Source: an uncultured Gammaproteobacteria bacterium
Lineage (GTDB): Bacteria > Patescibacteriota > Microgenomatia > Levybacterales > UBA12049
Direction of reading: 5' to 3'
Assembly: GCA_964416445.1 (NCBI GenBank)
Contig: CAYQEE010000001.1
Span: 67,676-131,675 of the forward strand
DNA length: 64,000 nt
Shown: piece by piece, positions 14,560-64,000 of the stretch
How positions within the stretch are numbered: the stretch's first letter is position 1
How the letters are laid out: each line of letters starts with the position of its first letter
The notes under the pieces: generated by a model
The model's input: only the letters and a program-made list of their open reading frames with translations
What the model was told of the DNA's origin: nothing
Database searches by the model: none
Position numbers and translations under genes: made by a program

Positions 14560-14568
14560 TGGTATAGT
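14560..14568 (+). promoter_or_regulatory. Candidate extended -10 promoter element TGGTATAGT, 13 nt upstream of the ATG at 14582 (near-leaderless transcript)
   Basis: TGnTATAGT matches the sigma70 extended -10 consensus. The same 10-mer recurs before 18168. Confidence 0.35.
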
Positions 14569-14581
14569 AGTATGAGAAAAA

Positions 14582-18130: not shown

Positions 18131-18139
18131 TGGTATAGT
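18131..18139 (+). promoter_or_regulatory. Candidate extended -10 promoter element TGGTATAGT upstream of the flippase gene
   Basis: Identical TGGTATAGTA 10-mer to the one before 14582. 28 nt upstream of the ATG at 18168. Confidence 0.35.
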
Positions 18140-18167
18140 AAGTAGCATATGCCTTTAAGACGATAAT

Positions 18168-32439: not shown

Positions 32440-32441
32440 TT

Positions 32442-39087: not shown

Positions 39088-39793
39088 AAATCTAAAGTCT
39101 CATTTTCTAAATAATATTGCATTATTTTATTTTGTGTTTTCTTTAAAAGAATTAAGTCGGGCTTTATGGTCTGATTTTCTTGCTACTCTTTTTTTAAACT
39201 CCGGTAGTGGATTTTTGACCAGTCTTGTAAAAGGGTTTATTGGACACTTTTTGATTAGAAGCATCTATCCGCTTTTTATTGGTAAACGCACAAAACTAGT
39301 GAATATTCATAATATAACCCTAGGGAAAAATGTCCGTATTGCAGATGATGTAACAATTATAGCGTACGGAAAAATCCATATTGGTGATAATGTTATTATT
39401 GGAGAGAAAACAACGATGATTGCTAACGACGAACTTGTTTTAGGAAATAATGTTGTTGTAACAAGAAATTGTTATATTGCCCAATTAGGAGGTCCTATTA
39501 TTATTGATGATTACGTACTTATTGGAGATTTTAGCCGTATACATAGTATTAATCATTCATACAGGGATGACGATATCCCACTACATAAACAACATCATAT
39601 ACGAAATAACATACATATACAGGAGAACGTATGGATTGGATCAGGTGTTATGGTGATTAATAACATAACTATTGGGAAAAGATCAGTGATTGGTGCAAAT
39701 GCAGTTGTTAATAAAAATATTCCACCGTTTGTTGTTGCGGCAGGAGTTCCGGCAAAAGTTATAAAATATATACATGAAAAAAATACTAAATAA
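39074..39793 (+). CDS. Hexapeptide-repeat (left-handed beta-helix) O-acetyltransferase with N-terminal hydrophobic segment
   Basis: Repeated [LIV]G-x-x-x-x hexads: [52 protein letters not shown]-terminus. Confidence 0.7.
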   Translation: MDQNKNLKSHFLNNIALFYFVFSLKELSRALWSDFLATLFLNSGSGFLTSLVKGFIGHFLIRSIYPLFIGKRTKLVNIHNITLGKNVRIADDVTIIAYGKIHIGDNVIIGEKTTMIANDELVLGNNVVVTRNCYIAQLGGPIIIDDYVLIGDFSRIHSINHSYRDDDIPLHKQHHIRNNIHIQENVWIGSGVMVINNITIGKRSVIGANAVVNKNIPPFVVAAGVPAKVIKYIHEKNTK

Positions 39794-41789
39794 ATCTATT
39801 CCTTTTCTTTTTTCTAGCATGTTGTTTCTTGCTATTGTAAAAATATTCTTTCACTGGATTTCACTACCCGAAATTAACGGAGGAGACTGGCCATACTATG
39901 CAAAGGGAATGTTTGAAAAATTTACGCCATTAGCACCGTTATGGACTGCTCAAGGCGGAATTGGGTTAGGTGGTGTTAATGCTGATTTTCCTATATATAG
40001 TTACTTATATTTTACCATTGGGGTTTTTGTCAATATACTTCATTTTACTTGGATTTACGTTTATAAAGTATTTTGGTTTTGGTTACCATTAGTATTTGGG
40101 GCAACAGGAATATCTTATTTATATAGAAGTTGCCAAAAAAAATCTACTTTTTGGGAAACTTCTCTTGCAGTTTTTCTCTACATAGCAAATACATACTTTC
40201 TTATGCTTGCATCTGGTGGTCAGATGGGTATTCTATTAAGTTATAGCGTTGCTCCCTTTGTTGTTGGTACGGTGATTAATTCGCTACGATCTTTTTCTGA
40301 AACAGTATCAATAGTTACTCTCATGAGGAGAGGTTTTTTATTTGGGCTTGTGGTATCGCTAGAAATGCTATTTGATCCTCGAATTACTTATTTAATGATA
40401 GGATTAGTTTTACTTTATATGCTTTTTTCTTTTTTTATAATCCGATCCATTCATATTGCTCATTATATCGGTTATGTAATCATAGGTTTTGCAACTCTTT
40501 TATTGATTCATAGCTACTGGCTATTACCGTTCTATTTTTTTAAATTGCTCGCTATACCGATGGGGATAACAAGTAGTTCAGGTTTTACTTTTTTTAGTTT
40601 TGCGGATTTTTCACATGCCTTATCTTTCTTACATCCAAACTGGCCAGAAAATATTTTTGGAAAAGTTCATTTTTTACAGCCTGAATTTCTTTTGTTTCCA
40701 TTACTTGCTTTTTTGGGACTGCTTGTTGTTAGAAAAATGCAGAAAGAAATAGGATTTGTTTATTTATTTTTTTGTTTCATAGCTCTAATTGGTGTATTTT
40801 TAGCAAAAGGGGTAAACCAACCTTTTGGAGAACTAAATTCATGGCTTTTTAATCATGTTATTGGTTTTAGCTTATTTAGAGATCCGACAAAGTATTATCT
40901 ATTCATTGCGATATCATATGCTGTAATGATTCCTTTATCTTTGAAAACGATGGTAGATTTTGGGATAAAAAGAGACTTTTTCCAATATATTTTCTTTGTT
41001 CTATTGTTAAGTATTATGCTATTTCAGATAAGACAAGCATTACAAGGTAGGTTAAACGGAACCTTTACACAGGTTTCGGTACCGCAGGATTATATTCGAT
41101 TTGGAAATTTCCTTTCTTCCCAACCAAATTTTTTTAGAGTTTTATGGATTCCTCAACAATCTCGTTTCCGATTTGAAGGTGAAAACCATCCCGTGCTTAA
41201 CGTAAATGATATTTTTAATACAACTGATCCCGTAAAAATTGCAAATAAATTACAAAGCGCTTCGGGTAGAAAGCTGGTACAAGATCTGAGTGTGAAGTAT
41301 ATTATCATTCCTTATGATAGTACCGGCGAGATTTTTCTGAATGACAGAAAATATGATAATATAAAACGACAAAATTTTATAAAGAAATTAGATAGTATAT
41401 CGTGGTTACAGAAATTTTCTATAGGTAAGATTATTGTCTACGAAGTTCCACGCTATAATGGTCATTTTGTCTTACCAAACCAAACAAACGTCCCATATAC
41501 GAGGAATTCAAGTTCTGATTATGTAGTGACTATTAACAATATATCCCCTCAATCACTGGTTTTCTCAGAAGCATATCATCCGGGGTGGATTGGAATTGTT
41601 AAAAATAGAGAAATTAGAAGTGTTCAAAATCCTGAGGGATTAAATACATTTAGATTACCTGCAGGAACCTATAAATTTCATATCATTTTTATACCGGAAA
41701 AGTATGAGAAATATTTCTACGCAATTTCATTTATTAGCTTTGTGGGAATAATGATTTTTTTACTAGGGTCTTATAAAAAGAAATTATAA
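39774..41789 (+). CDS. Large polytopic membrane protein (671 aa), third member of the GGD-motif family
   Basis: About 13 N-terminal TM helices. INGGDWPYY after TM1. C-terminal extracytoplasmic domain ending in TM anchor YAISFISFVGIMIFLLGSY. C-terminal Y/GW pattern shared with the other two. Confidence 0.5.
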   Translation: MKKILNKSIPFLFSSMLFLAIVKIFFHWISLPEINGGDWPYYAKGMFEKFTPLAPLWTAQGGIGLGGVNADFPIYSYLYFTIGVFVNILHFTWIYVYKVFWFWLPLVFGATGISYLYRSCQKKSTFWETSLAVFLYIANTYFLMLASGGQMGILLSYSVAPFVVGTVINSLRSFSETVSIVTLMRRGFLFGLVVSLEMLFDPRITYLMIGLVLLYMLFSFFIIRSIHIAHYIGYVIIGFATLLLIHSYWLLPFYFFKLLAIPMGITSSSGFTFFSFADFSHALSFLHPNWPENIFGKVHFLQPEFLLFPLLAFLGLLVVRKMQKEIGFVYLFFCFIALIGVFLAKGVNQPFGELNSWLFNHVIGFSLFRDPTKYYLFIAISYAVMIPLSLKTMVDFGIKRDFFQYIFFVLLLSIMLFQIRQALQGRLNGTFTQVSVPQDYIRFGNFLSSQPNFFRVLWIPQQSRFRFEGENHPVLNVNDIFNTTDPVKIANKLQSASGRKLVQDLSVKYIIIPYDSTGEIFLNDRKYDNIKRQNFIKKLDSISWLQKFSIGKIIVYEVPRYNGHFVLPNQTNVPYTRNSSSDYVVTINNISPQSLVFSEAYHPGWIGIVKNREIRSVQNPEGLNTFRLPAGTYKFHIIFIPEKYEKYFYAISFISFVGIMIFLLGSYKKKL

Positions 41790-43031: not shown

Positions 43032-43969
43032 GCAATGGTTTTCTCCAGTCCCATTTGAAGATTGTTATGTGGTTTCCAATTGATCGCATTTTCTAATTTA
43101 GAAATATCTGCCCTCATATGTTTCTGATCTCCTGGTCTAGCAGGAAAATAACTGATTGGATATATTTTCTGGTCTTTTTGTAAAGTATCCATAATAGTAG
43201 ATATGAGATCATGAATTGATTTATCTATACCAAAGCCAAGATTAAATACTTGATCGTATGTTTTTTCATTGTCAATACTATTGACCCAAGCGTCCACAAC
43301 ATCATCAATATAAACAAAATCTCTTGATTGTTGCCCATCACCAAATATTTTAATTGGTTCATTTCGGATGACATTTCCGATAAAGATTCCCATAACTCCT
43401 TGGTATGGATTAGTAAGACTTTGACGTGGACCATAAACATTAAACATTCGGAAAGATGTGACATTGAGTTTGCCAGGTAAGTCATTCCTCAATCCCGTAG
43501 CATGAACGAAACGTTCAGCGGCATATTTTGTTATACCGTAATACGAAATTGGAGCAGCATTATGGGTTTCCTGAACCGGTAGATTTTCTACTGGTCCATA
43601 GACAGTCATTGAACTTGCATAGAGAAGACGAGTAATTTTTGCTTCAACGCATTTCTTCACGATATTAATAGAGCCAATAAAGTTTGCTCGGACATCTGCT
43701 AACGGATCAGTAAAAGAGTTAATAGTTGATGCACATCCAGCAATATGGAACACCACATCGGGGATCTTTTCAAATGCTTTTTCAACATCATCTGAATTTG
43801 CTGTATCTCCTTGAATAAATCTTGCAGAACTTGGAATATTAGTTTTTAAGCCAGTCGAAAGATTGTCAAGTACCGTAACATCATATCCATCGGTAAGAAG
43901 TCTTTCTACCATGTGACTTCCAATAAATCCTGCTCCACCAGTAACTAGAACATGTTTTTTGCTTGCCAT
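43007..43969 (-). CDS. NAD-dependent epimerase/dehydratase (UDP-sugar 4-epimerase-like)
   Basis: [33 protein letters not shown]. Start placed at Met 43969 (MASKKHV) rather than 43990 to avoid a 39-nt divergent overlap. Confidence 0.65.
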   Translation of the reverse strand: MASKKHVLVTGGAGFIGSHMVERLLTDGYDVTVLDNLSTGLKTNIPSSARFIQGDTANSDDVEKAFEKIPDVVFHIAGCASTINSFTDPLADVRANFIGSINIVKKCVEAKITRLLYASSMTVYGPVENLPVQETHNAAPISYYGITKYAAERFVHATGLRNDLPGKLNVTSFRMFNVYGPRQSLTNPYQGVMGIFIGNVIRNEPIKIFGDGQQSRDFVYIDDVVDAWVNSIDNEKTYDQVFNLGFGIDKSIHDLISTIMDTLQKDQKIYPISYFPARPGDQKHMRADISKLENAINWKPHNNLQMGLEKTIAWAKAENR

Positions 43970-44008
43970 GTATGCTACTATTATACACATAAAATATTCT
44001 TTGTGAAG

Positions 44009-46447
44009 ATGCTAAAAAGGATAAATTTCTTTGTTAATTCCCGCTGGTTTATTGTTTTTATATGTTTACTTCTCGCAATAATTCCTTTTTTTTGGTTTAA
44101 ACCCGGGTATATCGATATTGGTGGTGATTCAAGTAGATTATATTTTTATGATCCTATTAATTTCTTAAATAGTTTTGTTCTTAATATTTTTTTACCAGAT
44201 AGTTTAGGAATAAAAAGTGGAAGTTTACATATGCTTCCCTTTATTTCTTTTCTCTCTTTGTTATTTAGTGTAGTTCGTTTCCCTTGGATTCTCAATAATG
44301 TATTTTATAGTATTAGTTTGGTAACCCCTTTTCTTGTTGTTTATGCAATTGTTAAAGAGTTCATTCAAGATTTGTGTGAGGAAAACACTCGACAATACCA
44401 AAATATCAGATATGCCTCTATTGTAGCAGGATTGTTTTATATTTTTATACCAATGTCTTCTGTGGGAGGGTGGGATTTGCCGTTAATCATTCAATCACAA
44501 CGCTTCGTATACCCCTTACTTTTCTGGCTTTTATTGAAATATCTAACAACGTCACGACAAGTTTTTCTCATAATCGCATTGCTTACGAGTTTTTTATTCG
44601 CTCATGATTTTAGTTGGGTGTCAGTTCCTAATGTTCTTGGATTTTTCTCTATCTCTCTTGTGTATTTATTGATATATATAAAATGTATAAAAAAGAAAAA
44701 AATACTAATAAAACCAATAATTTTAGCTTTTTTACTTTTTATTGTTCTCCATGCATTTCATTTACTTCCACTTTTTTTCACAATTTTTGAAAAAAATAGT
44801 GATGTGGGCAATCAACTGTTACAGGGAAGTAGATATTCGGATACTATTCAATATCTAGATAATGTTGCGAGTTATACATCTCATGGATATCAATTTATTG
44901 GTGTAACTCCATTTTCACCTTTTTCTTTCGTTAATATTTCTTTGGTAGTTTTTCCTTTATTGATTATCTTTATGCTCTATAAAAACAAAAATATATTTGT
45001 ACTTATTCCAACAATATTTTTTCTTGTTGTTTATTTTGCAGTTACCGCAAAAATTTCACAATTAGGTTTTTCTTTCTATAAGCTATTTTTTTTATTTCCT
45101 CCGCTAGTAATGTTTCGAGACTTTTATGGAAGATTGTTTGAAATATTTCTATTGTTTTATACTTTGCTAATAGGTTATGCTATGTTTATATTTTTTTCTT
45201 TAACAAAAAGTTATTTGAAGTTTGCAAGCATAATTGCTCTTGCATTTATACTGATTATAAATGCATTGCCATTTCTTTCTGGAAGTATATCAAACAGAAT
45301 TTTGACTCAAGACACCGGAGTAGTTGTAAAGAGTCGTTTGCAGATTGATCCAAATATTGAAAAAATATTGCGATATTTTAGAATGAATCCATCTTCTGCA
45401 AGAAATATCACATTACCTATAGCAGATTTTGATTACCAATTAATAGCAGGTAAAGGGAATGATGGTGTATATTTTGGTCCTTCAATGATTTCTTATCTCT
45501 CCGGAAAAGCTGATCTTGCTTCAAATTTTACGTTAAGACCATTTACTCAAGCACTTTTTAATAGCGTAAAAAATAAAGATTATCTTACTTTTGAAAATAT
45601 CTTTCCAATTTTAAATGTAGGAACAGTACTTCATAATGCAAATCCATATATTTACGAAGTTTTCAGGACATTTCCCTACAATGATGCAAAATTATACATG
45701 CCTCTAACACAAGCAGGGTATTCAGATCTTATTAATAACTTATCATTAAAAAAAATAAATGACTTTGGGAAATTTTATCACTTCTATACCGTTCCTTCTG
45801 CTTTACGCTTACCGATCATTTATCCTGCCAAAAAAGTAATATTTTTAAAACAGTCAACAAAGAGTAATTACGATGAGCGTCAATTTGCTAGTGCTGAATA
45901 CGTATTGAAAAACTTTAGACAAGATAAAAATGATAATGAGCTTCGAAAAGTCTTTTTGAATAATGACATAATGATTTCATCTCTATCCCAGCCGAATATT
46001 TCATTTTCAAAAATTAACAATTCAAAATATATTATAACTGTCGAACATGCATCAGGTCCATATGTATTGGTTTTTTCGCAATCATTTAATACAAATTGGC
46101 AATTATATACGGCAAATCAACAAACGGGAAAAAAAGAGAAAAATATAAAAATTATCCAATCATATTTTAATAACACTATTGTAGAAAGAAAAAATGAAAA
46201 TAAGATAATAGATATGAATATTCTTGAAACAATAGGAAAAACTCCAATCGCAAATACACGACATTATATGGCAAATGTTTTCGCAAATGCTTGGTATATT
46301 GTTCCTACCGATGTTTCTCATAAAACTAACTATACATTAGTTTTAGAGATGACTGATGATAGAATAATGTATGGTGGTATTCTGCTTTCTCTGATTGCAT
46401 TACTAATACTTCTTATTTGGTTAGTAAGAGAGATAAGACATAAATAA
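44009..46447 (+). CDS. Giant polytopic membrane protein (about 812 aa), paralog of 35482..39087
   Basis: IIPFFWFKPGYIDIGGDSSRLYFYDP N-terminal motif and many TM helices. Shorter extracytoplasmic domain. C-terminal anchor GGILLSLIALLILLIWLV. Start chosen at MLKRINFF (44009). The ORF track's longer start is 43952. Confidence 0.55.
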   Translation: MLKRINFFVNSRWFIVFICLLLAIIPFFWFKPGYIDIGGDSSRLYFYDPINFLNSFVLNIFLPDSLGIKSGSLHMLPFISFLSLLFSVVRFPWILNNVFYSISLVTPFLVVYAIVKEFIQDLCEENTRQYQNIRYASIVAGLFYIFIPMSSVGGWDLPLIIQSQRFVYPLLFWLLLKYLTTSRQVFLIIALLTSFLFAHDFSWVSVPNVLGFFSISLVYLLIYIKCIKKKKILIKPIILAFLLFIVLHAFHLLPLFFTIFEKNSDVGNQLLQGSRYSDTIQYLDNVASYTSHGYQFIGVTPFSPFSFVNISLVVFPLLIIFMLYKNKNIFVLIPTIFFLVVYFAVTAKISQLGFSFYKLFFLFPPLVMFRDFYGRLFEIFLLFYTLLIGYAMFIFFSLTKSYLKFASIIALAFILIINALPFLSGSISNRILTQDTGVVVKSRLQIDPNIEKILRYFRMNPSSARNITLPIADFDYQLIAGKGNDGVYFGPSMISYLSGKADLASNFTLRPFTQALFNSVKNKDYLTFENIFPILNVGTVLHNANPYIYEVFRTFPYNDAKLYMPLTQAGYSDLINNLSLKKINDFGKFYHFYTVPSALRLPIIYPAKKVIFLKQSTKSNYDERQFASAEYVLKNFRQDKNDNELRKVFLNNDIMISSLSQPNISFSKINNSKYIITVEHASGPYVLVFSQSFNTNWQLYTANQQTGKKEKNIKIIQSYFNNTIVERKNENKIIDMNILETIGKTPIANTRHYMANVFANAWYIVPTDVSHKTNYTLVLEMTDDRIMYGGILLSLIALLILLIWLVREIRHK

Positions 46448-52958: not shown

Positions 52959-53101
52959 ATTTGTTTTATTAAAATGTGATCATGAGCAGGAAATTCTTAT
53001 ATTGTCCACTACACATATTTGAGTCTAATTTCTTATTTCTTTCAAACTATAGGAAAGTATACAATTTTGAAATACTAAGTAAAAATGGTAGAATACTGCT
53101 T

Positions 53102-54049
53102 ATGATAAGTGCTGTTATTCCTCTTCATAATGAGGAGGAAAATTTGGATATTTTATATCAACGCCTTGTCCCTGCGCTAAAGAAAATAGATAAATCGTAT
53201 GAAATAATTTTTATTGATGATGGATCAATAGATTCTTCTTTAGAGATTCTTAAAAAATTGGCGTTGAAAGATCAATTGGTTCGAATTTACTCTTTCAGAA
53301 AAAATCTGGGGAAATCCGAAGCCTTAACTTTGGGTTTCCAGCAAGCAAAAGGAGACTATATTGTCACTCTTGATGCGGATTTACAGGACAGACCTGAGGA
53401 AATAGAGAAACTTAGTGTAAAAATGGAAGAAGGGTATGATTTAGTTACAGGGTGGAGGAAAAATCGACAAGACGCTCGATTCATGGTACGTGCTTCAAAG
53501 TTATTCAATGGGATGACAAAATGGCTCTGGAAAATAGATATTCATGATTATAACTGCGGTTTGAAATTATATAAAAAAGAACTTGCGAAGTCATTGCATT
53601 TATATGGTGGATTACATCGGTTTATTCCATTGTTGGCATATCAACAAGGGTTTTCAGTATCAGAAGTCCTTATACATCATGATAAAAGACTTCATGGAAA
53701 ATCAAAGTACGGTCCCTCAAAAGTTCTCAAAGATTTACCAGATTTGTTTACTATGATGTTTCTGAGCCTTTTCAGTCAGCGTCCTCTTCACTTCTTCTTT
53801 TTTATTGGAAATTTTTTATCTCTTATCGGAATAATATTTTTAGGATACTTAACGTATCTTCATTATTTTTTACACGAAACCGTTGGTACTCGTCCATTGT
53901 GGTCTGTTGGTATATTGTTTACGTTAGTTGGATTACAAATTACTTTTACAGGACTTTTAGCAGATCTTATTATTCATACGATGAAAGGAACTTTATCTCA
54001 TTCTGATGGAGTACAACAATTCATAAAATTTTCGACAGATAAGAAATGA
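53102..54049 (+). CDS. Polyprenol-phosphate glycosyltransferase (GT2, GtrB/ArnC/DPM1-like) with two C-terminal TM helices
   Basis: MISAVIPLHNEEENL ... IIFIDDGSIDSS ... TLDADLQDRPEEI plus C-terminal helices. Start set at Met 53102. The 42-codon upstream extension in the ORF track (52976) has no GT homology. Confidence 0.7.
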   Translation: MISAVIPLHNEEENLDILYQRLVPALKKIDKSYEIIFIDDGSIDSSLEILKKLALKDQLVRIYSFRKNLGKSEALTLGFQQAKGDYIVTLDADLQDRPEEIEKLSVKMEEGYDLVTGWRKNRQDARFMVRASKLFNGMTKWLWKIDIHDYNCGLKLYKKELAKSLHLYGGLHRFIPLLAYQQGFSVSEVLIHHDKRLHGKSKYGPSKVLKDLPDLFTMMFLSLFSQRPLHFFFFIGNFLSLIGIIFLGYLTYLHYFLHETVGTRPLWSVGILFTLVGLQITFTGLLADLIIHTMKGTLSHSDGVQQFIKFSTDKK

Positions 54050-54279
54050 AACCGCAAGATATTATTTTTTTTCTCTTATTTTTACTGTTTGTCTATAAAA
54101 GGAATTCACGATGGACAACAATTGCAGGAATAGTGTGCTTGCTTATTGCAATGCCTCTTTTTGCAAAATGGATATTTTTTACTGCTGAGCGACTAACTTG
54201 GTACGCAGGAGCATTATTTTGCTTGTCACTGTTCCAACAGCTTTATGAAATCAAAAAAGAGATTAAAAAAACTTCATGA
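54046..54279 (+). CDS. Small membrane protein (77 aa, 2-3 TM), possible GtrA-like accessory/flippase subunit
   Basis: Overlaps the GtrB-like gene stop (ATGA). Hydrophobic. No conserved GtrA motif seen, so function is inferred from position only. Confidence 0.3.
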   Translation: MKPQDIIFFLLFLLFVYKRNSRWTTIAGIVCLLIAMPLFAKWIFFTAERLTWYAGALFCLSLFQQLYEIKKEIKKTS

Positions 54280-55151
54280 CCCAAAAACAAAAAGCTTTAT
54301 TGGTTGTAGCAATTACTGCAATTGTTGGAGGAGGGACCACAGCAGTTACTAAAAAAGGACTAGCAGAAATTCCGCCGTTAAATTATGCATTTCTGCGATT
54401 CTTTTTATCGGCGATCATGATCTTCCCTTTTTTCTTAATATATGAAAAGCATATCTTCCGTGACTTAGGAAAAATATTGGGAATTTCACTCTTTGGTGCA
54501 TTAAATATTTTCTTTTTTATTCTTGGCATATCCAAAACAACTGCTACTATCAGCCAGTTGATTTATGGGGCAATCCCAGTTTTTACAGGTATTATTATGT
54601 ATATTTTTTTAAAAGAAAAACTCACAAGAATGAGAACGGTTGGTATTGTCTTAGGATTTATTGGAGTGATAATTGTACTTTTTTTACCAATTTATTTAAA
54701 AAATGTGCCGTTTGCTGGTAACGTGATAGGTAATATATCTATCCTTACTGCTGTTATTTCTTGGACGCTTTGGCTCATATTATCTAAAAATCTTTTGGTG
54801 ATAAAATCTCCTTTTCTTATAACAAGTTACATGGTCTTTGTCACTGCTATAGTATTGTTTCCTTTTTCGTTCCTAGAAGTACATGGTAATTATACATGGC
54901 TTTTTCGTATTGATCGAATAGAGATTCTATCACTTATGTATGTTTCAGTTATTTCCACTATTGCAACCTTTATCGGGACTCAATATGCTATAAAATATGG
55001 TGGAACAATGCTTGCCTCTACGTTATATTACTTACTTCCGATATCAGCATTTGTTTACGCATTTTTTTTACTTGGAGAAAAACTTAATTATGGAATAGGA
55101 GTAGGAAGTATACTTGTGTTAATAGGTACTTTCTTAGTAACCTTACAGTAA
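54276..55151 (+). CDS. EamA/DMT-family transporter (10 TM)
   Basis: 291 aa. Two repeated 5-TM halves. Typical EamA size and topology. Confidence 0.6.
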   Translation: MTQKQKALLVVAITAIVGGGTTAVTKKGLAEIPPLNYAFLRFFLSAIMIFPFFLIYEKHIFRDLGKILGISLFGALNIFFFILGISKTTATISQLIYGAIPVFTGIIMYIFLKEKLTRMRTVGIVLGFIGVIIVLFLPIYLKNVPFAGNVIGNISILTAVISWTLWLILSKNLLVIKSPFLITSYMVFVTAIVLFPFSFLEVHGNYTWLFRIDRIEILSLMYVSVISTIATFIGTQYAIKYGGTMLASTLYYLLPISAFVYAFFLLGEKLNYGIGVGSILVLIGTFLVTLQ

Positions 55152-55152
55152 T

Positions 55153-55686
55153 ATGAAAATTGGAATTGATATATCTCAGATTAGTTATAAAGGAACAGGA
55201 GTGAGTAATTATCTCCAGCTATTAATTCAAAATCTTTTAACTCAAGATAAAGAAAATGAATATATATTTTTTTATTCGTCTTTACGAAAGAAATTTAGTA
55301 TGTCTGAAGTTTTTGATCAGAAATTTTCGAATGTTCAAGTAAAACAGTTTCGATTTCCACCAGGATTATTAGATTTTCTATGGAATAGGATACATATTTT
55401 CCCGATAGAATGGTTCATAGGAGATATTGATATTTTTATTTCTTCTGATTGGACACAACCTCCAACAAAGAAAGCAAAAAAAATGACAATTCTCTATGAC
55501 CTTATTGTTTACAAATATCCTGCGGAAACGGCAGATCTTATCGTTCGCGTGCAAAAACGACGATTGCGTTGGGTTGCTAAAGAAGCTGATAAAATCATTT
55601 GTATCTCCGAAGCAACAAAAGCCGATGCAATAAATATACTACATATCGATAAAAATCGATTGCAGGTAATTTACCCAGGAATTTGA
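55153..55686 (+). CDS. Stand-alone GT4 N-terminal (Glyco_trans_4) domain: truncated glycosyltransferase or split GT-B half
   Basis: 177 aa. Homologous to the N-domain of the next gene (MKIGIDISQIS.. versus [10 protein letters not shown]..). Ends at VIYPGI exactly where the downstream GT4 continues TYPGIKAK into its catalytic C-domain. Confidence 0.45.
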   Translation: MKIGIDISQISYKGTGVSNYLQLLIQNLLTQDKENEYIFFYSSLRKKFSMSEVFDQKFSNVQVKQFRFPPGLLDFLWNRIHIFPIEWFIGDIDIFISSDWTQPPTKKAKKMTILYDLIVYKYPAETADLIVRVQKRRLRWVAKEADKIICISEATKADAINILHIDKNRLQVIYPGI

Positions 55687-55707: not shown

Positions 55708-56844
55708 ATGAAAAAAGTTTCAACAATTATTGGCATCGATGGTAATGAAGCAAATGTTGCGTTACGGGTCGGTATTAGCGAATACGCATTTGAACTTTTG
55801 CAACAATTTTCGATATTGCATTCACCATATACCTTTCAGATATATCTAAAGGAAAAACCTCGTGGTGAATTACCAAAAGAGGACGCACATTGGCATTATA
55901 AAATTGTAAAGCCAAGAAAGTTTTGGACTCAGATTGGATTGCCAATGAGTCTGTATGCTGATGCAAGTCGTCCAGGTATTATTTTTAGCCCTTCACACTA
56001 TGCGCCTCGATTTTCACCTATTCCTACGGCCATTTCAATAATGGACCTTTCCTATATTCATTTTCCGCAATTATTTGCAAAAAAAGATTTGTATCAACTT
56101 ACAAAATGGACTGCGTATTCGGTAGCAAACGCGAAGAAAATATTTACTATTAGTGAAGCAAGTAAAAATGATATAATTAACCATTATAAGGTAGAAGCTG
56201 AAAGAATTGTTGTAACCTATCCGGGTATAAAAGCAAAATCGAATCCTATGGATAAAACGCCTACTTTGGAAGAACTCAAACAACGATATGGCATTGAGGG
56301 AAAATTTATCCTTTTTGTGGGGACGATTCAACCAAGAAAAAATATCGCACGGTTAATAGAAGCGTTTTCCCAAGTACTTAAGAAACATGAGAAAATCTCA
56401 TTAGTTATTGTAGGGAAGAAAGGATGGCTCTATGAGCCTATTTTACAGAAACCGCATGATTTAGGTATTTCGTCGAAAGTAAAATTTCTTGATTTTATTT
56501 CAAATAATGATTTACACGCATTATATCAATACGCATTATGCTATATATTACCAAGTCTCTATGAGGGATTTGGATTGCCAGTACTTGAGGCAATGCAATA
56601 TGGGTGTCCAGTGATTACCAGTAATATAAGCAGTTTACCCGAAGCAGGAGGAGATGCCGCACTGTATGTTAATCCTGAAGATGTGTCGGATATAGCAAAT
56701 AAAATTTTTATGATGGTTGAAAATCAAAAAGTCCGTGAGGAGTACAGAAAAAAAGGATACGAACATATAAAAAAATTCTCTTGGAAAAAAACAGCGCAAC
56801 AAACGCTTGCGGTTTTAGAACAAATGATGAACGAAACTTTATGA
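55708..56844 (+). CDS. Glycosyltransferase family 4
   Basis: [26 protein letters not shown]-terminal motif plus N-terminal GT4 domain. Confidence 0.8.
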
Positions 56845-57434
56845 AAAACAGACTTGGCAAAGAGTTAACAATGGAAGAAGCAATGGATAAAGTAGCAAAC
56901 CGGATACAGAATATTATACTTGAACTTGGTATTTTTTGTATTCACCTCATTGGCAATATTCCTTTTCATCATGTACGACGTTTCTTTTATCGATTAGCTG
57001 GAGTCAAAATAGGAAAAGGTTCGACACTCCATATGGGTATTACATTCTATCAGCCAGAAAATATCCAGATTGGAGAAGATTCAATAATTGGAGAAAATAC
57101 TGTTTTAGATGGCAGAGATAAATTGCATATAGGCGACCATGTTGATATCGCTTCGGAAGTGATGATCTATAATTCACAACATGATGTGAACGATGAGTTC
57201 TTTTCAGCTATTGTTAAACCTGTTATTATACGGGATTATACGTTTATAGGACCTCGTGCAATTATTTTGCCAGGAGTAACGATAGGAAAAGGTGCCATTG
57301 TAGGCGCTGGAGCTGTAGTCACAAAAGATGTTTCTGATTTTGCAATTGTTGGTGGAGTTCCGGCTCAGGTTATCGGAGAAAGAAAATTAAAAGATCCTCG
57401 TTATCGACTAGGTAGAGCTCGTTGGTTCCGTTAA
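56841..57434 (+). CDS. Hexapeptide-repeat acetyltransferase
   Basis: [15 protein letters not shown] ... [17 protein letters not shown] ... [12 protein letters not shown]. Start set at 56841 (ATGA overlap with the upstream stop) instead of 56781. Confidence 0.65.
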
Positions 57435-58321
57435 ATATGAAATTATCAGTTATTAGTCTTAGTTACAACAAAAAAGAAATGACTGTTTCTTATATCGTTT
57501 CATTATATAATGTATACCGAGATTATTTTGAAAAAAATGAAATAGAATTAATCATTGTTGATAACGCTTCTGCAGATGGAGCAGCAAATTTTATTACACA
57601 AGAAGTAGCCGGGCAACATTATCGAAATATTCATATTATTAAAAATGTAACCAATGATGGTTTTGCAAAAGCTTGCAACAAAGGAGCATCACATGCAAAA
57701 GGAGAATTTTTATTATTTCTTAATAATGATTCGTTAATAAAAAGTGAAGGATTTTTAAAAATGGTATCATTCATGCAAGAACATCCTCATGTAGCGGTAA
57801 TGGGAGGAAGAATGAAAAATACAGATGGGTCGCCGCAATTATCAGCATGGAAATTTTATACGTTACCGAATGCACTGATCATGTTATTGGGTATGGAACG
57901 GTTTGGATTATTGCAATCGAGTCCTAACACAATACAAAAAGTTGATTGGGTTACTGGTGGATGTATGATGGTGCAAAGAAAAATATTTAGTACATTAGGA
58001 GGCTTTGATGAACATTTCTTTATGTATATGGAGGATATGGAATTATGTTACCGAGTAACAAAAGCAAAATATGCTATTTATTATTATCCGTTTCTCAATA
58101 TTAATCATATCGGACAAGGGAGTAGTAACCGCTCATTTGCTATCATTAATATTTATAAAGGAATACTTTATTTTTACAAAAAACATATGCCAGCCTGGCA
58201 ATATGGAATAATTAAGGCTATTTTATACTTAAAAGCGAAATTATTAATAATTTTTGGTAAGATAAGTCATCGGACATATTTTTCAAGCACCTATGAACAA
58301 GCTCTTGCAGTTTTTCAATAG
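57422..58321 (+). CDS. Glycosyltransferase family 2 (WbbL-like)
   Basis: [14 protein letters not shown] ... [11 protein letters not shown] ... FLNNDS ... [19 protein letters not shown]. Confidence 0.75.
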
Positions 58322-61300
58322 CTCGGTATTAAAAATCGGAGTTGCACTTTCGCTCCTTTTTATACCACTCTATCCCAAATTACCGAGTATATCGGTTACT
58401 CATACGTGGGTATATATTCGTGCAGAAGATTTTCTCATTGCAATCGTTACTTTTATCTGGATTGTCTTGTTACTCAGGAAAAAAGTAAAACTTCCTTTTC
58501 CTCTTGCGACACCGATTATTTTATATTGGATAGTTGGACTTATTTCCTTATTATTTTCAGTAATTTTTATTGGACCACATTTAGCTAATTTCTTTCCTAA
58601 AATAGCGGCGCTGGAATATCTACGGAGAATAGAGTACATGATTCTCTTTTTTATTGCGATATCTACCGTTAAAAGTGAAAAAGATATTTTGTTTTATTTA
58701 AAGGTTATTTTTGCAACAGTAACGGGGGTTGTTTTATATGGTTTTGGACAACGATGGTATGTGCTTTTATGGCATCAGTTCCCTAAATTTTTTGAAAAGT
58801 ATCCCTTTTGTTTCCCCTCATTTCAAACAGGAAATGAGGAGTTTGCGAAAGGATTAGCATTATGTCTTCCACCAGATGCGCGAATTACTTCAACATTCGG
58901 TGGACATTATGATTTAGCAGCTTATTTAGTTATTATTATTCCTTTACTTTTTGCCGCAGTTTTTATTTTTAAAAATATCTTTGCAAAAATATTTATTCTT
59001 ATCTTATCTATTGCCTCGTTAATGTTGTTAATATTAACTTCTTCTCGAACATCGTTTGTTGCTTATCTTGTTGGGATTTGTTTTATGCTCTTTTTTGCGA
59101 AACAAAAAAAGTATATCCTTCCGGTACTTATTTTTAGTATTATCCTTCTACTCTCCTTTAGTTCCTCAACAGCACAGCGGTTTCTTGAAACCATTCGCTT
59201 TACTTCTGTCGTTACCAATTCACAAGGGCAAGTTGTTGGGGTGACAACCTCAAGTTTACCAACTGATCTTCAAAAGAAAATATCAAAAAATCCTACGGTT
59301 GTTGCTGCACCTCCTCCATCCCAAAATCTTCCCACAGGTTCAAGTTTTATAACGCTACCAGGAAAGCAGATAACAACCCATGTTGCAGTTGTGCAATCGA
59401 ATGCACCCCAAAGTGTGGTCAAGAATCTCAAATATGCCTATGGAGGACAGGAAATATCAACAATTTCAGGAACATTTCTTGTAAAAAAAGCGCTTGTGTA
59501 CGATATTTCTATTACGACTCGTTTTCAAGCAGAGTGGCCTAATGCTTGGAATGCATTTCTTCGTAATCCTTTTTTAGGAAGTGGTTATAGTTCAATCTCG
59601 CTTGCAACTGATGGTGATTACTTCCGTATGCTTGGAGAAACAGGTGCATTCGGTATGGTAACTTTTGCCCTGATTTTTATGTTCTTTGGTACCCTGGTAT
59701 ATGCTGTTGGGCCTGACGCCCCTAAAACAGCACGTTATTTTGCATATGGATTAGCTGGTGGTATTATTGGTTTATTCATCAACGCAAGCCTCATTGACGT
59801 GTTTGAATCCTCAAAAGTAGCGGAATCACTTTGGTTATTGTCTGGTATTGGTATGGGGGGCATGCTTTTATATCAGAGAGAAAAAATCAATTACAAGTTC
59901 TATATGAAAAAAATATTCACTTCAAATATTCTTATTGGAATTTATTTATTTATTCTTACTGGTATAGTATTTTTTCAAACAATTTCTAACTTCTTCGTAG
60001 CTGATGATTTTACCTGGCTTCGTTGGGCAGGAGAGTCAAATATTCAAGATTTGAAAGGTTATTTGCTGAATGCAAGTGGATTTTTTTATAGACCACTAGA
60101 TAAATTTATTATTTTTGCTTTATTTAGCGTTTCTGCATTCCAACCGCAGTCTTATCATATTTTTATTCTGATACTTCATTTTATCACTACTGTTGGAGTT
60201 TACCTGCTTTTGAAGAAAATTTTTGGAGATAAATTATGGGCGTTTTTAGGATCGGTAATGTTCCTTTTATTGCCGATCCACGGGGAGAATATTTATTGGT
60301 TATCAACTATTTCTACAACCCTATCTTCACTCTTTATTGTTTATGCCACTCTTGCATGGCTTATGTTTCGGGAGAAATCTCTCACAGCATATATTTTTTC
60401 TTTACTCCTCAGTATTTTAGCATTTCTTTCTTATGAAATGGCTATAGTGATTCCAGGAATTTTGCTGATTTCAGATTTTTTTCTTGTTAAGCACAAAAAA
60501 ACATGGCGAATGTTTTTGGCCTACATACCAATTCTTTTTATTATTGGTGGCTATTGGTTTGTGAGACATATCTCTCGCGCGGTATCTTTTGGGGGAGATT
60601 ATGCTTACAGTGGTGTTCATTTTATTCCAAATTTTCTCGGTAATTTCTTTGGATATCTTGGCATTGTTATTTTTGGAGAGTATTTTTTCCCGACGTATAC
60701 GGCTTTACGTTCCAATTTGAGAATGTACTCACTTCCCTTTATTATTTTCTTTGCTGTTATTGTGCTACTGATACTAGGACTAGTTATTGGTAAAAAGAAA
60801 TTCGTTCATCGATGGATGCGTGCAAAAGCATTTCGAATGTGGTTATATGGTATTTGTTTTGCTATTGTAGGATTACTACCTTTTATTGGTCTTGGAAATA
60901 TTACTGAACGGTATGTTTATTTTGCATCACTTGGATTTATTATTTCCTTTGTTTCGATTGTCCAATCTATTGCGCAGATTTTTCTTCAACGGGAGAAAAA
61001 AATGATATATATTTTCGTTGGTATTGTCCTGCTTATTATTATTTGGTTTGGATATGATGTCCGTCGTGAATCGCAACAATGGCAACAAGCTGGTGAGATA
61101 ACGATGAGTACCCTCGGGATTTTACGGAACAACTATGCAGATATTCAACCATCAGCACATCTCTATTTTGTGAATGTGCCAATTCGATATCAAAATGCTT
61201 GGGTTTTTCCAACTGGCCTTACTGATGCTTTGTGGTTTATTTACCGAGATTCAAGTCCAAAAATTTATAGCGTCAAAGATGTTTCTACTGCACATAGCCT

Positions 61301-61379
61301 TATGAGTAGTGAACACGCAGTAAGACAATACATCTTTATATTTAATAAACAAGGAAATATAGGAGAAGTACAACAATGA
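58293..61379 (+). CDS. Fusion protein: N-terminal O-antigen ligase/polymerase-like (Wzy_C) polytopic domain plus C-terminal GT-C-like (PMT/ArnT-type) polytopic domain
   Basis: 1028 aa. N-terminal half: multiple TM helices plus a large loop with WPNAWNAFLRNPFLGSGYSS (O-antigen ligase-family loop motif). An internal Met at 59904 begins the second half, with FVADDFTWLRWA (acidic DD motif after TM1, as in GT-C enzymes) and about 12 more TM helices. Confidence 0.5.
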   Translation: MNKLLQFFNSSVLKIGVALSLLFIPLYPKLPSISVTHTWVYIRAEDFLIAIVTFIWIVLLLRKKVKLPFPLATPIILYWIVGLISLLFSVIFIGPHLANFFPKIAALEYLRRIEYMILFFIAISTVKSEKDILFYLKVIFATVTGVVLYGFGQRWYVLLWHQFPKFFEKYPFCFPSFQTGNEEFAKGLALCLPPDARITSTFGGHYDLAAYLVIIIPLLFAAVFIFKNIFAKIFILILSIASLMLLILTSSRTSFVAYLVGICFMLFFAKQKKYILPVLIFSIILLLSFSSSTAQRFLETIRFTSVVTNSQGQVVGVTTSSLPTDLQKKISKNPTVVAAPPPSQNLPTGSSFITLPGKQITTHVAVVQSNAPQSVVKNLKYAYGGQEISTISGTFLVKKALVYDISITTRFQAEWPNAWNAFLRNPFLGSGYSSISLATDGDYFRMLGETGAFGMVTFALIFMFFGTLVYAVGPDAPKTARYFAYGLAGGIIGLFINASLIDVFESSKVAESLWLLSGIGMGGMLLYQREKINYKFYMKKIFTSNILIGIYLFILTGIVFFQTISNFFVADDFTWLRWAGESNIQDLKGYLLNASGFFYRPLDKFIIFALFSVSAFQPQSYHIFILILHFITTVGVYLLLKKIFGDKLWAFLGSVMFLLLPIHGENIYWLSTISTTLSSLFIVYATLAWLMFREKSLTAYIFSLLLSILAFLSYEMAIVIPGILLISDFFLVKHKKTWRMFLAYIPILFIIGGYWFVRHISRAVSFGGDYAYSGVHFIPNFLGNFFGYLGIVIFGEYFFPTYTALRSNLRMYSLPFIIFFAVIVLLILGLVIGKKKFVHRWMRAKAFRMWLYGICFAIVGLLPFIGLGNITERYVYFASLGFIISFVSIVQSIAQIFLQREKKMIYIFVGIVLLIIIWFGYDVRRESQQWQQAGEITMSTLGILRNNYADIQPSAHLYFVNVPIRYQNAWVFPTGLTDALWFIYRDSSPKIYSVKDVSTAHSLMSSEHAVRQYIFIFNKQGNIGEVQQ

Positions 61380-62827
61380 TCGTACTGAGAAAGAAGGAGA
61401 TTATTGTACTTGCTTTAGTTATTGTTTTAGGTTTTATCGTTCGGTTATATCGTTTTTCAAATCCAATTGCCGATTGGCATTCTTGGAGGCAATCAGATAC
61501 CTCCGCAGTATCACGTAATTTTGTACAACATGGATTTGATGTACTTCATCCGCAATATGATGATATTTCTAATGTACAAACAGGTTTTGACAATCCAAAA
61601 GGATACCGATTTGTAGAATTTCCCTTATATAATATTGCACAAGCGGGACTTTTTACCCTCTTCGACCATTTCAATATTGAAGAATGGGGAAGATTCGTAA
61701 CGATTATTTGTTCTCTCTTTTCAAGCGTTTTTATTTTTCTTCTTACAAAACGACATGCGAATACAAGAGCAGCTTTATTTGCAGCAGGTATGTATACTTT
61801 CCTGCCTTATACTATATATTATGGAAGAACTATTTTGCCTGATCCTGCGATGGTTATGGCTATATTAGGTGGTACCTATTTTTTTGATCGTTGGGCCGAA
61901 GCATTTTCCCTGAAACATCGTTATACTTTTTTTTGGTATATTCTCGCAATTCTTTTTATTGCTGCATCAATACTGTTAAAGCCTTATGCATTATTTTTCA
62001 CGTTACCAATTCTTTGGATTGTTTGGAAAAAGTGGGGTCTCAAATTATTTTTACAACCATTTCTATGGGTATTACTTATCGTATCTATTGCGCCACTTGT
62101 ATTCTGGAGAATATGGATGCTTCAATATCCTGAAGGAATTCCCGTTAACGCGTGGCTTTTTAATGGTGGAAACATTCGGTTTACCGGAGCTTATTTTTAC
62201 TGGATATTTGCTGAAAGGATAAGTAAGTTGATACTTGGATATTGGGGTATTTCGCTCCTTGTTCTCGGCCTACTCGCAAGTAATATCAAGAATAAAGGAT
62301 TTTTCTATGCAAGTCTGCTTGGATCTCTCTTGTATGTTGTTATCATTGCACGAGGAAATGTTCAACATGATTATTATCAAATTCTGATCATTCCTAGTTT
62401 AGCTTTTTTCTTTGGGTTAGGTGCTGATTTCCTGCTGTCTCGACAGATCGCGGTATCGATGGTAACGAAAGTAGTCATGCTGAGTCTGTGTATTATTTTT
62501 ACGTTAGCATTTGGATGGTACCAAATTCGTGATTATTTTAATATCAATAATTATGCCATTGTTACTGCAGGACAAGCTGCCAAAGCATTAACTCCTCAAA
62601 ACGCAAAAATTATTGCACCATATAATGGTGATACATCTCTTTTATATCAAACTGATAGAAAAGGCTGGCCAAGTTTTGAAAAGTCATTACCAGAACTAAT
62701 AAAAATGGGTGCTGATTATCTTCTGTTAGTAAATCCTCAGCAAAATGATAGGAATTTAAGTAAAACATATAAATTAGTATCAGGGACAAATGACTATTTG
62801 TTATTTGATCTCCATAAAAAGCCATGA
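61376..62827 (+). CDS. GT-C-family integral membrane glycosyltransferase (PMT/ArnT-like)
   Basis: 483 aa. About 11 TM helices. First extracytoplasmic loop HSWRQSDTSAVSRNF. Typical size and topology for polyprenol-phosphate-sugar dependent GT-C enzymes. Confidence 0.45.
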   Translation: MIVLRKKEIIVLALVIVLGFIVRLYRFSNPIADWHSWRQSDTSAVSRNFVQHGFDVLHPQYDDISNVQTGFDNPKGYRFVEFPLYNIAQAGLFTLFDHFNIEEWGRFVTIICSLFSSVFIFLLTKRHANTRAALFAAGMYTFLPYTIYYGRTILPDPAMVMAILGGTYFFDRWAEAFSLKHRYTFFWYILAILFIAASILLKPYALFFTLPILWIVWKKWGLKLFLQPFLWVLLIVSIAPLVFWRIWMLQYPEGIPVNAWLFNGGNIRFTGAYFYWIFAERISKLILGYWGISLLVLGLLASNIKNKGFFYASLLGSLLYVVIIARGNVQHDYYQILIIPSLAFFFGLGADFLLSRQIAVSMVTKVVMLSLCIIFTLAFGWYQIRDYFNINNYAIVTAGQAAKALTPQNAKIIAPYNGDTSLLYQTDRKGWPSFEKSLPELIKMGADYLLLVNPQQNDRNLSKTYKLVSGTNDYLLFDLHKKP

Positions 62828-64000
62828 GAATTCTGGTTGTTTCATCATATTTACCTTTCCCACTCTATTCGGGGGGACATATTCGACTCTATAATTTACT
62901 GAAGGAACTTTCGGCTTCTCATAAAATAACATTAATTTGCGAAAAGAGAGATTATCAAACAGAGCGAGATAGAAGTGAACTTACGAAATTTTGTGAACAG
63001 GTGATAACCGTACCCAGAAGAAAACAATGGACGGTAAGTAATATTGTAAAAACGATATTTTCCAGGTATCCTTTTTTATTAGTAGGACATACCAGTAAAG
63101 AGTTTAAACAGGAAATTGTTAAAGCGTTAAATAATAAGCGTTTTGATGTAATACATGTGGAAACATTTTACGTATATCAGAATATTCCCAAAACATATCT
63201 ACCAGTTGTGCTTGCAGAACATAATATTGAGTATCTTGTTTATCAGCGATATACAAATATTTCTCCAATATATCTTCGACCCTTTCTCGCGCTTGATGTA
63301 ATGAAGATAAAGCATTGGGAAATGAAGAGTTGGCAGTCAGTCTCAAAACTCATTGCTGTTTCTGATAGAGAAAAAGAAATAATGCATAGGGAAAATGTTA
63401 CCGTTGTGCCAAATGGAGTTGATACGAAACTATATAAACTAAAAAGTACTCTTGCTAAGCAAAGACGAAAGGAGAAACGGATTCTCTTTATAGGGGATTT
63501 TAAATGGATTCAAAATATTCAAGCAGTCGAGCAGATTATTAAAAATATCTGGCCGCTTGTGACAGAAAAATTGTCCCTTGAAAATGAGGAGCATTCGATA
63601 AAATTATGGATTGTTGGAAAGAGAATACCACAGCATTTAAAAGCATTACAAGGCAAAAATATTTTTTTTGATGAAAATGCTCCTGATGAAACATGGAAAA
63701 TATATCACCTTGCTGATATGCTTTTAGCACCTATCACGGTAGGTGGGGGCACCAGTTATAAAATACTTGAATCTATGGCAACCGGTTTACCAGTAATAAC
63801 GACTCCTTTAGGAGTAGAAGGAATTGGGGCAAAGAAAAATCAGGAAGTATTGATTGGTGAAACGTCTCAAGAGATAGCGGATCAAGTGGTCAGGCTGATA
63901 CAAGATAAAATGTTGTATGAAACTATTAGCCAGAATGCACGAAAGCTTATTGAGGAAAAATATGATTGGAAAGTGATTTCAAAAAAATTAGAATATGTCT
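62824..64000 (+). CDS. Glycosyltransferase family 4, 3'-truncated by the window end
   Basis: ORF starting at ATG 62824 (ATGA overlap with the upstream stop) and open to nt 64000. MRILVVSSYLPFPLYSGGHIRLYNLLKEL N-terminus. GT-B C-domain LAPITVGGGTSYKILESMATGLPVITT. Confidence 0.7.
   Translation, partial: MRILVVSSYLPFPLYSGGHIRLYNLLKELSASHKITLICEKRDYQTERDRSELTKFCEQVITVPRRKQWTVSNIVKTIFSRYPFLLVGHTSKEFKQEIVKALNNKRFDVIHVETFYVYQNIPKTYLPVVLAEHNIEYLVYQRYTNISPIYLRPFLALDVMKIKHWEMKSWQSVSKLIAVSDREKEIMHRENVTVVPNGVDTKLYKLKSTLAKQRRKEKRILFIGDFKWIQNIQAVEQIIKNIWPLVTEKLSLENEEHSIKLWIVGKRIPQHLKALQGKNIFFDENAPDETWKIYHLADMLLAPITVGGGTSYKILESMATGLPVITTPLGVEGIGAKKNQEVLIGETSQEIADQVVRLIQDKMLYETISQNARKLIEEKYDWKVISKKLEYV

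Follow-up and report, generated by a model that had tools for sequence, protein, structure and literature searches.

A lineage-wide fusion of two GT-C-type membrane modules in a predicted surface-glycan operon of Microgenomates-type Patescibacteria

A Wzy_C-like module and a GT-C_A-like module form one membrane protein

The stretch of DNA analysed here, 64,000 nucleotides of contig CAYQEE010000001.1 (hereafter, the window), encodes on its + strand a protein of 1028 amino acids (aa) with an ATG start and about 23 predicted transmembrane (TM) helices (58293..61379 in the list of open reading frames, or ORFs). This protein joins an N-terminal module (N-module; aa 1-526, 58293..59870, 12 TM helices), assigned from sub-threshold Pfam matches, Foldseek, hhalign and model topology to a divergent branch of the Wzy_C/O-antigen-ligase superfamily (GT-C_B, where GT stands for glycosyltransferase), to a C-terminal module (C-module) whose membrane part (aa 545-947, 59925..61133, about 11 TM helices) has a GT-C_A fold. 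That the two-module fusion is a genuine, conserved membrane protein with a secure architecture is a conclusion we hold with high confidence, and gene order indicates that the gene belongs to a conserved surface-glycan operon of Microgenomates-type Patescibacteria. As to function, we favour the reading, at a probability of about one half, that the protein processes a glycan linked to undecaprenyl diphosphate (Und-PP) and adds decoration from a sugar linked to a lipid phosphate (lipid-P-sugar), both on the membrane's outer face.

A first-pass annotation made from the sequence alone had described a fusion of this kind, followed by a second GT-C-like gene. Both of its ORFs (1028 and 483 aa, joined by an ATGA overlap) are present at 58293..61379 and 61376..62827, and every motif that it quoted could be located: AWNAFLRNPFLGSGYSS corresponds to aa 418-434 of the fusion (59544-59594), M538 is the internal Met, FVADDFTWLRW spans aa 568-578 (59994-60026), and HSWRQSDTS is found at aa 35-43 of the downstream protein.

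The fusion is the standard form in its lineage

Searching 5.8 billion proteins with the fusion returned 1401 matches. Among them are at least 120 proteins, 1000-1082 aa long, that align over 97-100% of the query with identities of 46-60%. The first-pass annotation had proposed looking for the same fusion in related genomes; relatives are encoded in at least 215 species-representative genomes (scan of one genome per species), and a tblastn tally found the full-length fusion in 77/81 loci, the remainder being cut at contig ends. The best 80 loci lie at 34-60% identity except for the contig-truncated L032, and their titles name Levyibacteriota/Levybacteria, Gottesmanbacteria, Woesebacteria or Microgenomates. 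Because 77 independently assembled orthologues are full length and uninterrupted, a missed stop before 59904, which would leave two ordinary genes, is excluded; no single known family spans the whole length of the protein either. This conservation indicates that the fusion is old and is no assembly artefact. It had been called unusual, which is true relative to the literature but not within Microgenomates-type Patescibacteria, where it is the standard form.

Our literature searches yielded no description of the fusion, or of O-antigen ligases in Patescibacteria, Microgenomates or Levybacteria. What is new is the covalent, lineage-wide union of a GT-C_B with a GT-C_A module; the superfamily of each module is known. 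The fusion is already in databases, from uncultured organisms and under a generic annotation, the few named matches being labelled 'O-antigen ligase family protein [Patescibacteria group bacterium]'.

One locus, L085, is called as two genes (a 474-aa Wzy_C gene and a 534-aa GT-C gene), and the fusion gene of the window contains an in-frame ATG at 59904. Both observations could be taken to mean that the long ORF is an artefact of a missed stop or frameshift, or that two proteins arise through a start at M538 or through an internal copy of TGGTATAGTA. L085 was rejected as a natural split, since its in-frame TAG (2991-2993) replaces the codon of the invariant E505 within the N-module, away from the domain boundary; this TAG marks either a pseudogene or a sequencing error. 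M538, encoded by the ATG at 59904, lies in a predicted cytoplasmic linker between the modules (aa 527-544, 59871..59924, + strand; YQREKINYKFYMKKIFTS) that is rich in Lys and Arg (5 K/R per 18 residues). The internal Met of the first-pass annotation is therefore present, but its column has a Leu consensus among homologues and no Shine-Dalgarno-like sequence was seen upstream of the ATG. M1 is near-invariant across 65 homologues.

The window contains TGGTATAGTA at three positions (14560, 18131 and 59960), against a chance expectation of 0.12. The internal copy is an exact match on the + strand at 59960..59969, one nucleotide further on than the 59959 first given, and encodes T556-G-I-V559 in the first TM helix of the C-module, a non-conserved helix. 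It is missing at the equivalent position in 85/85 related loci, its flanks are unlike those of the two intergenic copies except for an A-rich run, and promoter-like sites in the region are not enriched (67 versus 61.7 in shuffles). An internal promoter was rejected on these grounds, and the internal copy is most likely a chance match; the first-pass annotation had already discounted it as the driver of a transcript encoding the Met. As neither M538 nor the TGGTATAGTA copy is conserved, nothing points to translation or transcription starting inside the gene, and, with 77 uninterrupted orthologues and a TAG in L085 that lies inside a domain, we give almost no credence to an artefact or to two separate proteins.

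The two intergenic copies of TGGTATAGTA (14560-14569 and 18131-18140), each with an A-rich run before it, are closely followed by ORFs that start at 14582 and 18168; both copies are plausible as extended -10 promoter elements.

The N-module resembles the ligase/polymerase superfamily and lacks the ligase His

The fusion matches Pfam Wzy_C (PF04932) below threshold (18.7 bits versus a cut-off of 31.7, aa 238-301), as do six relatives scanned singly (19.9-28.9 bits), and the N-module also has a weak IctB match. Across the family, Wzy_C matches were found in 38/46 members at E ≤ 0.01 (best 9.9e-9). The Wzy_C profile aligns in two collinear pieces (positions 2-67 with about aa 238-302, and positions 78-149 with about aa 405-460), and some 100 aa are therefore inserted into the domain. 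This insert, about 100-110 aa within the outer loop of Wzy_C (aa 296-409, 59178..59519, + strand), is conserved in sequence (columns G312, G316, L322, L326, G349, L355, G393, F395, Y403 and D404) yet has a predicted local distance difference test score (pLDDT) below 50 in the AlphaFold2 (AF2) model.

The full-length AF2 model (pLDDT 79.1, predicted TM-score (pTM) 0.78) matches WaaL (7tpg_B; E 4.3e-3, TMt 0.62) and, more weakly, FtsW. Both matches are assigned to the N-half because they vanish when the C-half model alone is searched, and the modelled N-module has the 12 TM helices and large outer loop of the WaaL-like fold (7TPG). The proposed Wzy_C/O-antigen-ligase likeness of the first 535 or so residues is thus borne out by family-wide Wzy_C matches and by a structural match that depends on the N-half. 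For the domain annotation as a whole, the architecture is as first described, but this particular protein scores below the Pfam cut-offs in both halves.

Invariant residues of the N-module include R252, R296, R410, D404, D440, E449, D502 and E505, together with C173 and C191. For comparison, an alignment of the E. coli WaaL family was built, in which the invariants include R215, R265, R288, H336 and H338. An hhalign comparison of the two families is statistically weak (E 0.0021, probability 13%, 209 columns) and places R252 opposite R215 and R296 opposite R265, each of these residues being invariant in its own family; both Und-PP-binding Arg residues appear to be retained in the N-module. Beyond the insert the alignment is again weak (E 0.19) but collinear, with T439/D440 opposite H338/N339 and D502 opposite D389. 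No conserved His follows the insert, the sole well-conserved His in the N-half of 65 members being H205 (94%), and the ligase His of WaaL (H338 in E. coli, H313 in C. metallidurans) has no counterpart. Within clan GT-C1, ligases have a His at this position, and SEDS proteins and inverting polymerases have Asp/Glu (Meitil et al. 2024, PMC10920833). A polymerase-type reaction is favoured because the apparently retained Arg pair and D440 without a ligase His form the SEDS/Wzy-type pattern. On these grounds we place the N-module in the Wzy_C/GT-C_B superfamily as no canonical WaaL, and the evidence leans towards polymerase-type rather than ligase chemistry.

The C-module has a GT-C_A fold and also occurs as a separate gene

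When the C-half (aa 534-1028) was searched against 1.84 billion cluster representatives, 12,081 proteins were retrieved at E ≤ 1e-3, comprising fused forms of about 1000 aa (aligned over about aa 530-1020) and stand-alone forms of about 450-550 aa. The AF2 model of the C-half (pLDDT 95.3, pTM 0.94) was compared with known structures using Foldseek, and matched STT3 (2.7e-5, TMq 0.52), ArnT, ALG12, PglB, Pmt4, DPY19, AftA/AftD/Emb and PIG-U. All PDB matches at a probability of at least 0.5 were polytopic GT-C-type proteins, of the GT-C_A type apart from ALG12 and PIG-U, and the matches to STT3, ArnT, PglB, Pmt4, DPY19 and AftA reached a probability of 1.00 (TMq 0.35-0.52), which places the module in the GT-C_A fold.

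An alignment of 73 fused and stand-alone C-module sequences, with identities as low as 20%, has just two invariant columns, D572 and W930; conservation is at least 90% at D571, R600, P601, Y621, H622, E665, W669, E715, N784, R873 and Y876. The acidic pair D571-D572 (60003..60008, + strand) sits, according to the topology, 6-7 residues past the first TM helix of the C-module on the outer side, the position of the acidic residue in the first outer loop of GT-C_A enzymes, and it is our candidate for the catalytic base, with D572 as the presumed catalytic residue. The description of a second polytopic domain with a DD motif as in PMT/ArnT enzymes is thereby upheld, by the fold matches and by the invariance of D572.

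The same residues bear on the suggestion that the C-module has no catalytic activity and acts as a scaffold or binds the acceptor, leaving only the N-module and the downstream PMT_2-family protein as enzymes. Inactive GT-C paralogues occur in other systems, and no Pfam GT-C family reaches its cut-off on the fusion. An invariant D572, with D571, R600, E665, E715 and R873 nearly so down to 20% identity, is nevertheless the pattern of an active GT-C_A site, and the module persists as an independent gene; we regard a dead C-module as highly improbable.

That independent gene, P0128 (493 aa, 39% identity), is complete on a 72-kb contig (locus L083, SRR22387955_1785), in the order GT2, P0128, GT4, HAD, ArnC-like GT2 and ABC-2 transporter, with neither a Wzy_C nor a PMT_2 gene. 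This gene order suggests that the C-module can serve an ABC-transporter-dependent pathway too. Another candidate stand-alone C-module, P0126, lies on a 2-kb contig and was set aside as uninformative.

At the level of sequence families, the fusion itself has an EpsG match below the cut-off (20.2 versus 30.1 bits) and no PMT_2 (PF13231) match (cut-off 26.1 bits). Among 46 fused members scanned, weak matches were found to PTPS_related in 4, PMT_2 in 4 and EpsG in 2, and one fused member, P0041, passes the PTPS_related cut-off. Three distant stand-alone relatives pass PMT_2 (P0221, P0245 and P0262, at 39.8, 34.4 and 30.5 bits), and since only stand-alone relatives do so, the C-module belongs to PMT_2 only by transitive homology.

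The protein ends in an extracytoplasmic alpha/beta domain of about 80 aa (aa 948-1028, 61134..61376, + strand), seen as strands and helices in both the full-length and the C-half models, with the motif NAWVFPxGLxDxLWFIYRD and conserved W970, P973, G975, W981 and Y984. The WW[DE][YWF]G motif of STT3/PglB/AglB (GT66) is present in 0/65 members.

Topology was inferred from the model helices and the positive-inside rule. Both ends of the N-module are predicted to be cytoplasmic, and the C-module would have its N-terminus inside and its C-terminus outside, ending in the outer domain. Loops rich in K/R alternate as expected in this model, which puts the invariant C173/C191 pair in an outer loop and the conserved polar residues of both modules all at the outer face, including D571, D572, R600, E665, W669, Y714, E715, D769, N784, R873, Y874 and W930 of the C-module. 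Taken together, the model would place both catalytic faces outside the cytoplasmic membrane.

The fusion gene sits among conserved partner enzymes

In the window, closely spaced genes of the + strand follow one another in the order ArnC/GtrB-like GT2, EamA, GT4 N-domain protein, GT4, hexapeptide acetyltransferase, GT2, fusion, PMT_2 and GT4; the neighbour counts that follow refer to orthologous loci with enough flank. Directly 3' of the fusion, in 71/72 loci, lies a stand-alone GT-C gene (61376..62827, 483 aa, ATG start) whose product passes the cut-offs of PMT_2 (44.1 versus 26.1 bits) and PMT (28.3 versus 22.7 bits), in agreement with the first-pass description of a GT-C-like protein following the fusion. 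At the junction, caacaATGAtcg, the TGA stop of the fusion overlaps the ATG of the PMT_2 gene, an ATGA overlap from which we take the PMT_2 gene to be translationally coupled to the fusion gene. The C-module and the PMT_2 protein as recent paralogues were rejected, as BLASTP detected no similarity between them.

The gene at 52976..54049 encodes a GT2 protein with C-terminal TM helices that matches ArnC (3.3e-44), GtrB sll0501 (3.5e-32) and DPMS (1.5e-17) in the PDB over about 290 residues; its best NCBIfam matches are ArnC and PgfS, at scores that do not reach the equivalog cut-offs. The GT2 domain, C-terminal TM helices and full-length homology are those of a polyprenyl-phosphate glycosyltransferase, and the protein is a candidate polyprenyl-phosphate monosaccharide synthase supplying donor to the GT-C_A modules. 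Such a gene lies within 7 kb upstream in 33/49 loci, and it is found downstream in L013 and L083, both of which have a C-module and no PMT_2 gene.

Between this gene and the fusion, an EamA-family transporter (54276-55151, by Pfam) occupies the same position in 1/56 related loci; by analogy with ArnE/F it is a candidate lipid-P-sugar flippase, and no conserved part of the operon. The following genes, identified by Pfam, form a block whose order and orientation recur in orthologous loci: a 177-aa gene for a GT4 N-domain only (55153-55686, 58/59 loci), a GT4 (55708-56844, 61/62), a hexapeptide acetyltransferase (56781-57434, 68/70) and a GT2 (57422-58321, 61/73), which the start of the fusion gene overlaps by 29 nt. 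The 177-aa gene is not a broken one, because it is a separate gene in 58/59 loci, usually just 5' of the full GT4, and its product may be a split or accessory GT-B half.

On the 3' side, a further GT4 gene with an ATGA overlap to the PMT_2 gene runs off the window (62824..64000) and has a homologue in 52/68 loci. In L001, L087 and L088, where this homologue is called GT4, the operon continues GT4-GT2-GT4-GT4-NTP_transferase-Bac_transf, with DUF4012 next in L001 and L087 and the contig of L088 ending before it. Bac_transf thus shares an operon with four to six cytoplasmic GTs in these three relatives, and an enzyme for Und-PP priming is therefore available there.

From 26 kb onward, the window is otherwise also devoted to glycan synthesis, and the 64 kb contain no tRNA or Rfam match. 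Three large polytopic ORFs have no Pfam match: 35482-39087 (1201 aa), 43952-46447 (831 aa) and 39774-41789 (671 aa). The 1201-aa and 831-aa products are paralogous to each other (31% identity over 652 aa, E 2e-77), each having the motif 'FFW[LF]KPG..GGDSSR' in its N-terminal part and a TM anchor at its C-terminus; they may be further GT-C-like glycosyltransferases of the outer face. At 30296-34117, flanked by GT4/GT2 genes and epimerases, lies a set resembling a nucleotide-heptose pathway, made up of an NTP_transferase-HAD phosphatase fusion, a GHMP kinase, an epimerase and a SIS isomerase.

Many metagenome-assembled genome records titled 'uncultured Gammaproteobacteria bacterium' (for example L005, L011, L013, L020, L026 and L082) share this Patescibacteria-type operon, and a few records with the same operon are titled Methylomirabilota, Eisenbacteria or Lysobacterales. 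These titles appear to be wrong, because the gene order matches the Patescibacteria operon.

A proposed reaction scheme and its alternatives

From the architecture, folds, conserved residues, synteny and partner enzymes observed above, we infer donors, an acceptor, an order of steps and a coupling. A small Bac_transf phosphoglycosyltransferase, of the kind encoded in orthologous operons, and the GT4/GT2 enzymes would build an Und-PP-linked oligosaccharide in the cytoplasm. After its flip to the outer face, the N-module would use the Und-PP-linked glycan as donor, either joining it to another repeat or transferring it to an acceptor other than lipopolysaccharide (LPS), the polymerase type of reaction being favoured. 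The C-module, with D572 in its first outer loop, and the PMT_2 protein would each attach one monosaccharide, using a polyprenyl-phosphate sugar that the ArnC/GtrB-like GT2 of the same operon would make. The fusion would in this way couple the processing of the backbone physically to the addition of side chains.

A more far-reaching version of this scheme holds that one polypeptide is an obligatorily coupled machine to 'polymerise/ligate and decorate (or prime)', uniting GT-C_B chemistry on a lipid-PP-oligosaccharide with GT-C_A chemistry on a lipid-P-monosaccharide and defining an uncharacterised, lineage-wide surface glycoconjugate of Microgenomates-type bacteria, with the insert and the C-terminal outer domain serving in acceptor recognition. 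We put this forward tentatively, as rather less probable than not.

Several observations weigh against the favoured scheme. Every Pfam match on the fusion itself is under its curated cut-off; profile searches with the whole family and with the C-half gave no PDB sequence match, and PDB sequence searches with the N-half and with the PMT_2 gene gave nothing useful. The alignment of the WaaL His with an Asp is weak (E 0.19), and its register could shift by one residue. No Wzx-type flippase, chain-length regulator (Wzz) or ligase to a final acceptor (LCP) turned up in the window or, for three related loci, within 10 kb. The PMT_2 protein alone, or one of the other GT-C-like proteins of the region, could be what the ArnC/GtrB-like gene serves. 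Lastly, the best structural matches of the C-module include STT3 and PglB, whose donors are lipid-PP-oligosaccharides.

This last point also supports the coupling first proposed, in which the N-module polymerises and an ArnT-like C-module, or one like an oligosaccharyltransferase, passes the completed polymer as a whole to a protein or lipid. The matches to STT3 and PglB (E 2.7e-5 to 9e-4) and the polymerase-like Asp pattern of the N-module would suit such a transfer, and monoderm Patescibacteria need a means other than WaaL of attaching surface glycans. Users of lipid-P-monosaccharides (ArnT, Pmt4, DPY19 and ALG12) match the C-module about equally, however, its sequence affinity is to PMT_2, and the outer domain measures only about 80 aa. 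The coupled function first proposed is possible but not the best supported one, because the operon has a conserved lipid-P-sugar synthase and the C-half has no WWDYG-type motif (0/65 members); we judge it quite unlikely.

Comparison with known glycosylation systems

WaaL (CAZy GT121, 7TPG) is a structural match of the N-module (TMt 0.62), with which it shares 12 TM helices and a large late outer loop and may share the Arg pair, since R252/R296 align, in the statistically weak hhalign comparison, with R215/R265 of E. coli WaaL. The N-module differs in having no conserved acceptor-activating His, D440 adjoining the aligned position, and in its loop insert of about 110 aa, its Pfam scores below the cut-offs and its fusion to a second enzyme. 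Patescibacteria are not known to make LPS, and a WaaL-type ligase would find no lipid A-core acceptor there. Wzy-type polymerases and SEDS proteins (clan GT-C1, PMC10920833) have the same fold class, use the lipid-PP-oligosaccharide chemistry proposed for the N-module, and carry one or two conserved Arg residues and an Asp/Glu at the position of the ligase His, as the N-module appears to do; they differ in that the fusion has no Wzx or Wzz partner nearby (window, and up to 10 kb in three loci).

With ArnT (GT83), PMT (GT39), PglB/STT3 (GT66) and DPY19, the C-module shares the fold, the acidic residue of the first outer loop, the N-in/C-out orientation and a C-terminal outer domain. Its sequence similarity to these GT-C_A enzymes is only marginal, however, and it has an outer domain of about 80 aa, no WWDYG motif, no MIR domain and a covalent link to a Wzy_C domain.

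The logic of the operon resembles that of known three-component glycosylation systems (GtrA/GtrB/Gtr*, ArnC/ArnT, CsbB/YfhO and PgfS/PgfM1/PgfM2 of S. mutans), in which, as here, a lipid-P-sugar synthase stands beside GT-C transferases. The Pgf system has two GT-C_A modules per operon, like the fusion operon. What differs here is that no GtrA-type flippase was seen and that one GT-C module is fused to Wzy_C.

The closest precedent for joining a ligase-family domain to a glycosyltransferase is WadA of Brucella and Mesorhizobium, a bimodular O-antigen ligase (GT121 plus GT25) that has been read as acting in a coupled manner. The GT25 partner of WadA is a soluble enzyme that uses nucleotide sugars on the LPS core, in contrast to the polytopic, outside-acting GT-C_A module described here, and Pfam scans found no GT25 or other soluble GT domain in the fusion or in 46 relatives. 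WadA nevertheless offers a model for a different division of labour, in which the C-module sets an acceptor sugar on a surface protein, lipid anchor or wall polymer and the N-module ligates the Und-PP glycan onto that sugar. It is the only bimodular enzyme of the O-antigen-ligase family that we found described, and its transferase adds the last core sugar, that is, the acceptor; in the fusion, both modules face outward, the union is strictly conserved, and the small outer domain of the C-module could bind an acceptor. This scheme is countered by the missing WaaL-type catalytic His of the N-module, by the stand-alone C-module of L083, which lies beside an ABC-2 transporter without an adjacent Wzy_C gene, and by the nature of the WadA partner, which is no GT-C protein. 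We consider priming followed by ligation unlikely beside the favoured scheme of Und-PP-glycan processing with decoration from a lipid-P-sugar.

Significance

Processing of Und-PP-linked glycans and decoration from lipid-P-sugars are normally tasks of separate proteins, whose coordination at the membrane surface is poorly understood; a strictly conserved fusion argues for physical coupling of both enzyme types and offers a defined target for structural work. The database name 'O-antigen ligase family protein' overlooks half of the protein and implies a role in LPS that is unexpected in its hosts. For this uncultured lineage, whose envelope chemistry is essentially unknown and whose lifestyle probably depends on cell-surface interactions, the fusion serves as a marker of a conserved surface-glycan operon with at least a dozen genes.

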